A stretch of 64,000 nt of DNA from Acidimicrobiia bacterium (GCA_026985095.1 JALSQW010000008.1:50470-114469), one strand, 5' to 3'; shown: positions 15,221 through 46,184, counted from the first letter of the stretch. The notes: generated by a model not told the origin, from the sequence alone. A program made the numbers and translations.

Positions 15221-15424
15221 TCAATCACCGTCGGCTCGGGAGCCCGGACCGGGCTCGTCGGGACCCACTCAACACCCGGGCTCGCCGTGGTTGCCGCAGC
15301 AGTTCGACCGGTTCTTCAGCTTGATGGCGTTGTTCCTCGCCGCCACCAGGATCTTCTCCATCAGCGGCAGCTCGGACCGGGCCCAGTTGGAGCGGACCGC
15401 CTCGAAGCTCGGCTCACCGCACAT
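15221..15424 (-). CDS. small Cys-rich protein ending CCGNHGEPGC; possible Sec readthrough at TGA 15269-15271 (ends at 15269 if not recoded)
   Basis: ATG 15424 with TACGGT -10 element 6 nt upstream; GGTC-loop hairpin 12 nt after TGA; next in-frame stop at 15221. Confidence 0.6.
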
Positions 15425-43741: not shown

Positions 43742-44884
43742 TCAGGACTCGTCGTGGTCGGATTGTAGGGATCGCTCCGGAGGAGACCTCCGCCACCACG
43801 GCGTCCACACCCTCGCCAGCGGATGCCGCCGATGATCGGGCGCGGAGCGGTCCGAGGTCCACGGGGCGTAGGGAGCGTGGATCATCTCGGCGATGGCGAG
43901 CAGCACCGTGTCGTAGTTCACCCGCCACCCGGCGAAGTCGCCCCACGCCCGGTCCCGGTCGGCGACCAGGCGCACCCCCACCGCTTCGAGGGCCTCACAG
44001 GCGGCGTCGAACTCCTCGCGGGTGATCGAGATCGGGTCGGTGGGTGCCGGATCGGGGTCGAAGGGGATGCCGAAGAACTCGGCGATGTGTCGAAGCGACA
44101 GCGTGCCGGCCCGGATCATGATGCCGCCCGGTGCGCGGGGGACGTCGGCAACGGCAGCGACCCACAGCGCCGCCGCGTCGAGGACCGCTCCCGCCGCGGT
44201 GATCCACGACATCGCCGGGTCGTGGCTACGGAAGAAGGCCAGCACCGGGTACGTCGTGTGGCTCTCTTCGATGTCGACGAACCATTCCTCCCAGGCGAGC
44301 CACTCGCCGGGCAGCCGCTCCATCCAATCGATCCGCCGGTAGCGCTCGAGCAGTTCAGTGGCGCTGGGAGGGGTCCCGGCGCGAACCGCCAACAGCGCGA
44401 CGCGCATCTCGCGACGGGAGAACGCCCCGTAGATGGACGGCAGATAGGTGATGAGCAAGGTGAGCAGCAGCAGACCGAGGCCTGCCTCGACGAAGGCCAA
44501 CGTCCGTTCGGTGGCGCCGTCGGCGGGGGCGAACCCCAAGGTGGTGATCGACGATCCGCTCAGGTGGTAAGCGGCGCCGACGCCTGCGGTCGGGTCGACG
44601 GCCCAGAACAGCGCTCCGAACGCGGCGAGGACGGTCGTCAGCCAGACGAAGACGATCAGGATCAGCCCGATGGGACCGACGACCGCCCGGATCCGGTCCT
44701 GTTCCTCGTAGGTCCGCCGCGTCCTGGCGGCGAGCTCGGCGACGGCGAGGACGAGACGGAAGGCCGTGGCGGTCAACACCGAGCGGGATGGCCGGGGCAG
44801 CACGAGGGTCTTGAGGGCGGACATGAGGACCCCGGCGACCAGCAACAGCCCGAGGGTGAAGACGAGAACCCGGATGACGACCAT
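43742..44884 (-). CDS. membrane protein with ion-channel-like pore segment
   Basis: YHLSGSSITTLGF pore helix, LLITYLPSIY, ESHTTYPVLAFFRS. Confidence 0.7.
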   Translation of the reverse strand: MVVIRVLVFTLGLLLVAGVLMSALKTLVLPRPSRSVLTATAFRLVLAVAELAARTRRTYEEQDRIRAVVGPIGLILIVFVWLTTVLAAFGALFWAVDPTAGVGAAYHLSGSSITTLGFAPADGATERTLAFVEAGLGLLLLTLLITYLPSIYGAFSRREMRVALLAVRAGTPPSATELLERYRRIDWMERLPGEWLAWEEWFVDIEESHTTYPVLAFFRSHDPAMSWITAAGAVLDAAALWVAAVADVPRAPGGIMIRAGTLSLRHIAEFFGIPFDPDPAPTDPISITREEFDAACEALEAVGVRLVADRDRAWGDFAGWRVNYDTVLLAIAEMIHAPYAPWTSDRSAPDHRRHPLARVWTPWWRRSPPERSLQSDHDES

Positions 44885-44926
44885 CGCGACAGCCTAGGGA
44901 CGACGCGATGGGCCTATATTGCCCCC

Positions 44927-45487
44927 ATGCCCCATATCGAGCCGATCCCCCCGGACGAGGCCACCGGCGTCGCCGCCCGCCAGTACGAGGCCGCCATGCG
45001 GCGGGCCGGCCGGATCTGGAACATCGTGGCCATCCAGAGCCAGAACGGTCCGGCCATGCGCGACTCGCTGCGCCTGTACTCGACGTTGATGCTCGGCGAA
45101 TCGCCGCTGTCGAGGGCGCAACGGGAGATGATCGCCGTGGTCACCTCCCAGGTGAACGAGTGCGTGTACTGAACTCGTGCCCATCTCCACGACCTCCGGT
45201 CGGAGGTCGACGACCCCGAGCTGGTGGACCGCTTCGCCCACGACTGGCGTGAGGCGGGGCTCGATCCGGCCACCGAGGCGCTGCTGGGCTTCGCCGAGGC
45301 CCTGACGCGGGACCCGACCGGTGACGCCGCCGGACGCGTCGCCCGGCTCCGCCGAGCCGGCTTCAGCGACCGGGCCATCCACGACGCCACCCAGATCTGC
45401 GCCTACTTCAACTACATCAACCGGATCGCCGAAGGCCTGGGCGTCGAGCCGGAGGACTGGATCGACGAGGTCGGGCGCCGCCGCTGA
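44927..45487 (+). CDS. AhpD/carboxymuconolactone decarboxylase-like peroxidase-related protein; selenoprotein (CxxU, TGA 45170-45172)
   Basis: LSRAQREMIAVVTSQVNECVY-TGA-TRAH continues in frame to YFNYINRIAEGLGV; SECIS-like hairpin 45190-45209; TATATT -10 element 6 nt before ATG. Confidence 0.85.
45190..45209 (+). promoter_or_regulatory. bacterial SECIS element
   Basis: CGACCTCC-GGTC-GGAGGTCG 8-bp stem starting 17 nt after UGA; GGUC as in the E. coli fdhF SECIS loop. Confidence 0.75.
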
Positions 45488-46184
45488 CGGGTCGCGGGTC
45501 CGCAGGCAGACCGGCGAGGAAGCCCCCGAAGAACCGGTCGGCGGTCTCGGCGACATCGTCGTCGGCCACCCGCAGCGCCGCGTCGAGCTGAGCCCGGTCG
45601 GCTCCCGCCCGAGCCACGAGATCGTCGAAGGACGCCGACCGCCAGGTGGCGAAGATCGCCGGGGTGACCTCGGGATGAGGCTGGATCGCCAGGGCCGAGC
45701 CGACCCGGAACGCCTGGAGGTAGCCGCCGCCCGTGGCCAGGATCGTCGCGTGCGGTGGCGCGTCGAACGTATCGGCGTGCACGCGGAGCAGGGAACGGCC
45801 ATGGAGCGTCCCGACGGCGGGGTCCACACGTCCGTGCGGAGTGAGCTCCACGGGGGCGAAGACGGCCTCGGGACGTGGCGCCGGGTAGGCCGCACCGCCG
45901 AGGGCCGAGGCGATGATCTGGCTTCCCAGGCAGATGCCGAGGACCGGCACGCCGGCGTCGACGGCGTCGACGACGAGCCGCCCTTCGGCGACGAGGAAGG
46001 GGTACTCGTCGGTCTCGTATGCGCCCATGGTGCCGCCGAGGAGCACCAACGCCGAGACCTCGCCGATGTCGGGCATCGCCTCGCGGCCGGCGGCGACGAT
46101 CCGCGCCGGGATCCCACGCCGGTCGAGGACGTCGGCCAGTCGGCCGGCCGGCGCCACGGGGTCGTTCTGCACGATCGTGATCAT
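45417..46184 (-). CDS. type 1 glutamine amidotransferase-like protein
   Basis: LLGGTMGAY, LGICLGSQ, QPHPE. Confidence 0.88.
   Translation of the reverse strand: MITIVQNDPVAPAGRLADVLDRRGIPARIVAAGREAMPDIGEVSALVLLGGTMGAYETDEYPFLVAEGRLVVDAVDAGVPVLGICLGSQIIASALGGAAYPAPRPEAVFAPVELTPHGRVDPAVGTLHGRSLLRVHADTFDAPPHATILATGGGYLQAFRVGSALAIQPHPEVTPAIFATWRSASFDDLVARAGADRAQLDAALRVADDDVAETADRFFGGFLAGLPADPRPVSGGARPRRSSPPARRPGLRRSG

Follow-up and report, generated by a model that had tools for sequence, protein, structure and literature searches.

AhpD-like proteins in which selenocysteine (Sec, U) stands at the second position of a CxxU motif (COG2128) were reported in 2005 from a Sargasso Sea survey, which contained 27 such sequences (PMC1088965). 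In 2006 an AhpD-like selenoprotein was recorded in two complete genomes, and the same paper counted the Actinobacteria as one of the three phyla with the most selenoprotein families (PMC1794560). The Global Ocean Sampling (GOS) survey of 2008 contained 299 Sec and 902 Cys sequences of the AhpD-like family, which ranked fourth in abundance (PMC2398784). The family is browsable in BSepDB (PMC13326102) and is entered as 'AhpD-like protein, TIGR01926, CxxU' in a table of a 2026 review (PMC13188914). A 2026 preprint describes another Acidimicrobiia lineage with universal Sec machinery and about five selenoproteins per genome (10.64898/2026.04.03.716425). Here a gene of this kind is described in a stretch of 64,000 nucleotides from an Acidimicrobiia bacterium (JALSQW010000008.1:50470-114469; hereafter the window): positions 44927-45487 very probably form a selenoprotein gene of the AhpD-like (TIGR01926/COG2128) family. 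A literature search for this gene in Acidimicrobiia found no paper describing it, which is not proof of absence.

The active-site residues are known from Cys-containing proteins. Glu36, Cys48, Tyr50, Cys51 and His55 of PA0269 correspond to Glu118, Cys130, His132, Cys133 and His137 of Mycobacterium tuberculosis AhpD (PMC3141380). The closest assayed relative of the protein described here is Deinococcus radiodurans DR_1765 (PDB 6k40), which gives CxxC-dependent protection against H2O2 (PMC8945050).

A TGA codon within the redox motif

There is a single in-frame TGA between position 44927 and the terminal TGA of the gene; the readthrough product is 186 aa long and contains the motif N-E-C79-V-Y-U82-T-R-A-H86 (coordinates are collected in Table 1). 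The ATG start is backed by alignment, M1 being nearly invariant among 43 sequences. In the table-11 list of open reading frames (ORFs) the gene is split at the TGA, and an 87-aa ORF with a GTG start is found at 45224-45487. The preliminary description of the locus had joined both pieces into one protein of the CMD/AhpD family, with the TGA at the second Cys of the family motif; the sequence confirms that the two halves are in frame, and both the family and the position of the TGA are borne out by model scores and alignments.

The NCBIfam model TIGR01926 ('peroxidase-related enzyme') matches with 138.9 bits (cut-off 81.8), the alignment running over residues 9-177 of 187 and over positions 8-177 of the 178 in the profile; the Pfam family CMD (PF02627) matches with 48 bits against a cut-off of 23. 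A partial match to NF041238 over residues 58-180 stays below its cut-off (68.1 bits against 175). Solved relatives are 3c1l, 2pfx, 2oyo and 6k40 (E = 5e-28 to 1e-24); 2prr also matches, and the five range from E = 5e-28 to 4e-18. The CxxC of the solved chains is matched to C79 and U82 in the printed alignments, which place Cys opposite U82.

An alignment of 43 sequences has seven invariant columns: R66, E67, C79, Y81, U/C82, H86 and R166. It leaves out 11 of 53 loci: L020, which is the window itself; L040, L050 and L072, whose coordinates extend beyond the stop; L069, with a second TGA; L049, as too distant; L061, as nearly a duplicate; and L038, L042, L044 and L045, removed by thinning. The U82 column is occupied by Cys in L046, L047, L048, L051, L070, L071, P0052 and the PDB chains, and conserved residues reach the C-terminus. 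The pentad E67/C79/Y81/U82/H86 has the same spacing as Glu36/Cys48/Tyr50/Cys51/His55 of PA0269 as given in PMC3141380.

The TGA is conserved among relatives. Of 41 genomes searched, comprising the window's own and relatives at the level of genus (one), family (23) and order (16), 34 gave matches, and 31 of the 32 tblastn matches were read as loci; L049 (24% identity) was dropped, and a second copy in genome G023 has no locus. All 16 places with at least 60% identity (60-99%), in 15 genomes, have exactly one in-frame TGA. U occupies the same motif column in 15 of 15 orthologue loci (the window's own and 14 relatives). A paralogue type of about 40% identity, with the motif …C-H-Y-U-x-x-H-H-R-R-G-L-R-R-L-L, has U in 12 of 12 loci, L042 from the unpublished genome G038 included. 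In a type of about 32% identity the residue is Cys (C-L-Y-C) in four of four loci, one of them on contig C64 of the window's own genome. The alignment at position 82 that had been proposed as a check on the gene gives TGA in all 15 of these orthologue loci and Cys in the Cys-type relatives. Unpublished genomes contribute G038 to the 34 with matches and G086 and G211 to the ten of a phylum sample described below; the main claims do not rest on them.

A pattern scan of species-representative genomes gave 65 loci, of which the best 24 were examined and 22 align across residue 82; the codon at this residue is TGA in 20 and TGT in two of these 22. Two of the loci compared, L052 and L021, appear to come from one and the same contig. 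Going by the titles of the records, the forms with TGA belong to the Actinomycetota (Acidimicrobiia), Planctomycetota, Acidobacteriota, Chloroflexota, Gemmatimonadota, Pseudomonadota and Bacteroidota.

Substitutions in the aligned genes follow a coding pattern on both sides of the codon: pairwise differences at codon positions 1, 2 and 3 are 0.263, 0.189 and 0.457 before the TGA and 0.250, 0.240 and 0.456 after it. Judged from this shared pattern of coding and protein conservation, translation appears to continue past the TGA.

A sequencing error at the TGA was considered and is ruled out. Contigs from three sequencing runs were compared with the window. A 10,540-nt contig of run X1 spans 44700-45700 with no differences; this run may be the source of the window's DNA and so is not independent. 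A 304-nt contig of run X2, from another study (record 9), covers 44911-45214, again with no differences, and X3 does not cover the TGA. Since the X2 contig comes from a different study and has the same TGA and hairpin, an error is excluded; the possibility that reads would show TGC or TGT at 45170, raised when the gene was first noticed, is settled in favour of TGA.

The genome (G000; 2.93 Mb in 70 contigs, rated 100% complete) contains the full Sec machinery, as the preliminary description had predicted. The adjacent genes selA (401.6 bits) and selB (294.3 bits) on contig C23 score above curated cut-offs, as does selD (396 bits, with one in-frame TGA) on C32. The tRNA-Sec scores 73.6 bits against a cut-off of 47 and has the anticodon tca according to ARAGORN.

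The downstream hairpin as a candidate SECIS element

The TGA is followed by a hairpin with the features of a bacterial selenocysteine insertion sequence (SECIS). The 5' arm CGACCTCC (45190-45197) and the 3' arm GGAGGTCG (45202-45209) form eight of eight perfect pairs around the loop GGTC (45198-45201); the stem begins 17 nt downstream of the TGA, as first described, and the loop 25 nt downstream (45173-45197). According to the legend of Fig. 2 in PMC13188914, the bacterial SECIS (bSECIS) model has a loop of 3-9 nt, a stem of 4-16 bp, a G in the first two loop positions, a distance of 16-37 nt from UGA to loop and a free energy of at most -7.5 kcal/mol. All four constraints agree with the hairpin found here, which has a 4-nt loop on an 8-bp stem, GG at the start of the loop, a distance of 25 nt and -14.0 kcal/mol for the hairpin alone.

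The hairpin recurs in 15 of 15 orthologue loci, and the same stem arms are found in 19 of 20 TGA-bearing loci of the pattern scan. These 19 keep the arms GAyCUC…GAGrUC; L072 has a different hairpin. In the orthologue alignment (A1) the loop residue G29 is invariant and G30 nearly so. Across the 15 orthologues 95.8% of the alignment cells in the stem are paired, and sliding the 3' partner lowers this to 30-52%; only one pair covaries (CG in 10, UG in three, UA in two). When the 63 nt after the TGA are folded, the hairpin is present in the minimum free energy (MFE) structure of 14 of the 15 orthologues, the exception being the window's own sequence.

Codon choice is also constrained. Mean codon entropy is 0.27 in the six hairpin columns and 1.05 in 78 other conserved columns (Mann-Whitney p = 0.002); the sequences compared are kin, which touches all columns equally. 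All 15 orthologues use CTC for Leu90, and 13 of them use CGG for Arg91; in other Leu and Arg columns the codons vary freely.

The paralogue clade has another stem, of 7 bp, which starts 14 nt after the TGA and again carries a GGUCU loop. This stem covaries: two pairs change on both sides, and three of 500 shuffles reach the score. The count is based on ten of 12 loci, L042 and L045 having been left out beforehand for their other downstream sequences. The window's own genome has a member of this clade at C12:65044-65592 (L050), about 40% identical, with the CxxU motif N-D-C-H-Y-U-T-V-H-H-R-R-G-L-R-R-L-L and a SECIS-type hairpin (7-bp CCGGCGC/GCGCCGG stem, GGUCU loop, 14 nt after the TGA); the clade is widespread within the order. 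A third homologue in the genome, at C64:17157-17645 (L051), is about 31% identical and has the Cys form N-D-C-L-Y-C-V-V-A-H-G, so the genome has both Sec and Cys versions of the fold.

Run X1 also holds a 3552-nt contig of another organism that joins the window at 45191, where the match is limited to the 20-nt hairpin; upstream of the hairpin this contig reads ...C-H-Y-TGA-V-Q-A-H-A... The SECIS core is therefore common at the nucleotide level to different organisms of one community.

Proposed decoding and catalysis, and competing explanations

From these observations we infer how the codon would be decoded and what its product would do. By the established bacterial Sec pathway, SelB with Sec-tRNA(Sec) would bind the apical loop of the GGUC hairpin 17-37 nt downstream of UGA82 when this codon occupies the A site, and delivery of Sec at this codon would compete with release factor; the hairpin would then be unwound and translated as HDLRSEV. 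The terminal TGA of the same gene has no such hairpin.

The product would be a 186-aa thiol/selenol oxidoreductase of the AhpD fold, with C79-V-Y-U82 as redox centre and Glu67, Tyr81 and His86 as proton relay. In M. tuberculosis AhpD, Cys133 is exposed and cross-links Cys61 of AhpC, and Cys130 is partly buried (PMC6626918); by this comparison Sec82 would take the place of the exposed attacking cysteine and Cys79 that of the resolving one. The selenolate would attack either an oxidised partner (a peroxiredoxin-type disulfide or sulfenate) or peroxide directly; resolution of the intermediate by Cys79 would give a selenenylsulfide, to be recycled by a cellular reductant. The genome has 14 places matching PF00578 (AhpC-TSA), 13 of them above cut-off, all on other contigs.

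A number of results weigh against this reading. The stability of the 61-nt region is not exceptional (z = -1.29; among 200 shuffles, 16 give an equal or better fold). In this 61-nt context the window's own sequence has another, non-conserved MFE fold (-24.3 against -15.1 kcal/mol), and the pair probability of the hairpin is 0.009. Covariation in the orthologue stem is not significant; six of its eight pairs are constant, and a score as high as the observed one arises in 60 of 500 shuffles. Since the stem coincides with codons of the conserved peptide HDLRSEV, its conservation is partly a protein constraint. An Rfam scan of 44800-45600 at E <= 10 returned no SECIS family, the matches being three at chance level (NLPC-P60, P10 and P4; E = 1.2-6.7); bacterial SECIS elements are poorly represented in Rfam, which makes this outcome uninformative. 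The support for a SECIS element is comparative and geometric, not energetic. As to function, the canonical AhpD model TIGR00777 reaches 19.6 bits against a cut-off of 191.95, no peroxiredoxin gene lies beside the selenoprotein gene, and contig C8 has no PF00578 place. Because no peroxiredoxin is adjacent and the neighbours are kept only in close kin, the putative partner and role are drawn from distant Cys homologues.

Of the other explanations, the one that survives best accepts Sec insertion and takes the protein for a gamma-carboxymuconolactone-decarboxylase-type (gamma-CMD) enzyme, a redox sensor or a metal- or metalloid-handling protein. The Pfam match is indeed to the broad CMD family, no neighbouring peroxiredoxin was seen, and no assay of a TIGR01926 member from this clade was found in the literature consulted. 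However, the full AhpD proton-relay pentad is invariant, and the description of PA0269 (PMC3141380) gives the CxxC motif and relay residues as not found in gamma-CMD family members. No decarboxylase model is among the NCBIfam matches at E <= 0.01, and the CxxU relay is present. Deletion of the nearest characterised homologue, DR_1765 (6k40, E = 1.1e-24), causes sensitivity to H2O2, and its CxxC is needed, as reported in PMC8945050. A function other than that of an AhpC-type reductase or peroxidase is unlikely on this evidence.

It is highly improbable that UGA82 is instead read as Trp, Cys or Gly, through near-cognate or suppressor decoding or a reassigned code. An alternative code would yield an open frame, and W is printed at this position in four database entries (P0050, P0051, P0070 and P0079), but these are most simply artefacts of gene calling. 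The code is not reassigned, since TGA is the terminal stop of ten of the 15 orthologue genes, the window's included. The genome has a dedicated tRNA-Sec (UCA) with selA, selB and selD, and Trp or Gly would abolish function at this position, which in the invariant CxxC centre belongs to the catalytic Cys. Occasional Cys at the UGA under selenium shortage could occur and would be a minor variant of Sec decoding.

The least probable explanation, a true stop in a split or decaying gene (an 81-aa N-terminal piece and a separately started C-terminal piece, with the hairpin incidental or a regulatory element such as an attenuator), would account for the splitting of the locus by gene callers, the GTG-started ORF, the C-terminal fragments of about 104 aa that are the closest database relatives and a hairpin not thermodynamically favoured in its own sequence, but it is at odds with the full Sec machinery, with features that a pseudogene would not keep over 15 loci and seven phyla (a TGA in a constant column and, on either side of it, an open frame and substitutions biased to the third position), and with active-site residues on both sides of the TGA (Glu67 and Cys79 upstream, catalytic His86 and invariant R166 downstream), which leave neither piece alone with an active site.

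Genomic context, distribution and known systems

Table 1. Features of the window discussed in the text, in window coordinates
Feature	Position	Strand	Remarks
AhpD-like selenoprotein gene (predicted)	44927-45487	+	ATG start; 186 codons including Sec82; terminal TGA 45485-45487
In-frame TGA	45170-45172	+	codon 82 (U82), second position of the C79-x-x-U82 redox motif
Active-site segment	45125-45184	+	E67, C79, Y81, U82 and H86 (proton-relay pentad)
SECIS-type core hairpin	45190-45209	+	8-bp stem and GGUC apical loop; encodes H88-D-L-R-S-E-V94
Gap to divergent upstream gene	44885-44926		42 nt
Divergent upstream gene	43742-44884	minus	380-aa membrane protein without family match
Convergent glutamine-amidotransferase gene	45417-46148	minus	PF00117, NF005458-like; as ORF called
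Small intergenic ORF, candidate selenoprotein	15224-15424, possibly from 15451	minus	TGA 15269-15271; hairpin ~15240-15256

The last 71 nt of the selenoprotein gene (45417-45487) are shared with the convergent glutamine-amidotransferase gene. In the upstream gap, TATATT is found at 44915-44920, 6 nt upstream of the ATG, and no purine run resembling a Shine-Dalgarno sequence was seen; the mRNA may have a leaderless start. A consensus promoter and terminator scan of 44700-45700 gave no promoter-like and no terminator-like sites, so that the leaderless start has no support from this tool.

The divergent membrane-protein gene adjoins the orthologue in five of the loci of 14 relatives, and the downstream amidotransferase gene in four; none of the 21 loci L053-L073 has either gene next to it. 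The flanks compared were 1.5-3 kb with several short contigs, so misses do not show absence. Gene neighbourhood was dropped as a functional clue; the neighbours are kept solely among close kin.

In an even sample of 200 further Actinomycetota genomes, ten give matches at E <= 1e-25. TGA is present in each of the 14 places listed, of which 12 are in those ten genomes and two in the window's own; the only orthologue of at least 60% identity in this sample is in G026, from the same order. A maximum-likelihood tree built from 50 sequences unites all 17 Actinomycetota orthologues in a single clade (98/93), which also includes three database entries printed with W; the tree label 'Acidimicrobiales' was not checked against taxonomy, class being taken from record titles only. 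Nested beside L034 in this clade (96/86) is a trio, P0052, P0054 and P0056, with the motif S-T-R-Y-C (first Cys lost, Cys at the second position) or A-C-R-Y-C; two have a one-Cys centre. The trio fits a replacement of Sec by Cys, if the root lies outside the clade. The clade of other phyla mixes them, for example Bacteroidota with Chloroflexota at 100/96, which fits horizontal transfer. The tree is rooted at the midpoint only and does not show directions.

Public annotation of the relatives is poor. A protein-database search gave 183 clusters at E <= 1e-10; the closest (60-71% identity) are the C-terminal fragments mentioned above, named 'peroxidase' or 'uncharacterized peroxidase-related enzyme'. 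Among ten entries fetched, four have W at the Sec position, one has CxxC, two have TxxC, two are C-terminal fragments and one (P0090) lacks the motif region; the cluster of P0070, one of those with W, has 655 members. Among the proteins returned by the search, Sec members are stored faultily in P0050, P0051, P0070, P0079 and P0091-P0169, either as fragments of about 104 aa or with W, which would be a TGA=Trp gene call. As a result of this mis-annotation, redox inventories of Acidimicrobiia metagenome-assembled genomes (MAGs) will miss the gene.

The SECIS core (GAyCUCC, a G-first loop of 4-6 nt and GAGrUC) is nearly identical at the nucleotide level, at a fixed offset, in seven phyla. One possible, though doubtful, explanation is a selenoprotein gene that moves horizontally and has a SECIS able to work with SelBs that differ greatly, that is, a portable minimal SelB-binding element, within an under-annotated aerobic selenoproteome. 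Signs in this direction are the phylum mixing of the non-actinobacterial clade and the occurrence in one genome of a GGUC-type loop on three unrelated stems, those of this gene, of the C12 paralogue and of the small ORF at 15.2 kb. If this explanation were true, the selenoproteome would consist of two AhpD-like paralogues, a Sec-containing SelD and a small, unnamed ...GCU protein, and would be maintained as a defence against oxidative stress rather than for formate metabolism.

Further Sec-related loci were seen in the genome. SelD (C32:14580-15503, L010) is itself a selenoprotein, with the motif H-G-A-G-U-A-C-K; its TGA is followed by a strong hairpin (-33.4 kcal/mol over 60 nt). A genome search with TIGR01553 (formate dehydrogenase alpha) gave no match above cut-off. 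A weak formate-dehydrogenase-alpha match (83 bits) at C56:1561-2007 and a weak AhpC-TSA match (27 bits) at C56:67236-67556 have one in-frame TGA each and are possible further selenoproteins.

The small ORF at 15.2 kb gains support from the AhpD-like gene, as the preliminary description had stated. It reads ...NW..SELPL.EK...KN.AIKLKN.S.CCGNHGEPGC-U-VGPDEPGPGS..., and the hairpin GAGCCC-GGUCC-GGGCUC, with a GGUC-type loop, starts 12 nt after its TGA. Matches at E <= 0.01 were found in ten of 40 relatives (two of them, G038 and G027, unpublished), each with one TGA. In every case the length of the spacer between TGA and hairpin is divisible by three (12 or 15 nt), and many of the tails that follow U are rich in His and Asp. 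The 46-aa form has no Pfam or NCBIfam match at E <= 10, and the 76-aa form none at E <= 0.001 (Pfam) or E <= 0.01 (NCBIfam). Matching database clusters number 46, of which 41 are 50-53 aa long, and 'hypothetical protein' is the only name given; in nine of nine fetched entries the sequence stops exactly at ...GEPGC, and none with a Cys form was seen. The ORF is a candidate small selenoprotein family, without family assignment, and is more novel than the AhpD-like gene.

The AhpD-like gene is a clean and comparatively well-supported case of Sec use outside formate dehydrogenases in the Actinomycetota, and its SECIS is conserved enough that it could serve as a search pattern. The loop of Escherichia coli fdhF is also of the GGUC type. 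All four constraints of the bacterial SECIS consensus model (bSECISearch, E. coli fdhF type) agree with the hairpin, which differs in having a perfect 8-bp helix without a bulged U; it is almost nucleotide-identical across seven phyla, and no Rfam model covers it.

Three groups of described proteins can be set beside the product. D. radiodurans DR_1765 and the other solved chains (3c1l, 2pfx, 2oyo and 2prr) belong to the same subfamily and share its relay residues, with Cys, not Sec, at the second position. M. tuberculosis AhpD, the lipoamide-fed AhpC reductase (TIGR00777), has the CxxC/His/Glu proton relay in common with it. Unlike that protein, the one described here is of another subfamily, with the motif helices N-terminal (as in PA0269), Tyr in place of His132 and no adjacent ahpC. 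NF041238 (AhpD_rel_CFYUT, 'hypothetical protein 1' of the Sargasso Sea) is likewise AhpD-related with a CxxU motif; its model is 357 positions long and so describes a different, larger protein.

The closest system is the AhpD-like CxxU family itself (Zhang, Fomenko and Gladyshev 2005; Zhang and Gladyshev 2008), which has the same hidden Markov model, motif, downstream G-loop SECIS and widespread Cys homologues. The preliminary description was right that the family and this SECIS geometry are known, both being in print, the family since 2005; the novelty it gave to the case is its weaker side, as the AhpD-like CxxU family is not obscure. There is no difference of kind: this copy comes from an Acidimicrobiia MAG, and its close database relatives are truncated or mistranslated. 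The gene is an ordinary member of a catalogued family in an under-annotated lineage and not a new kind of system.

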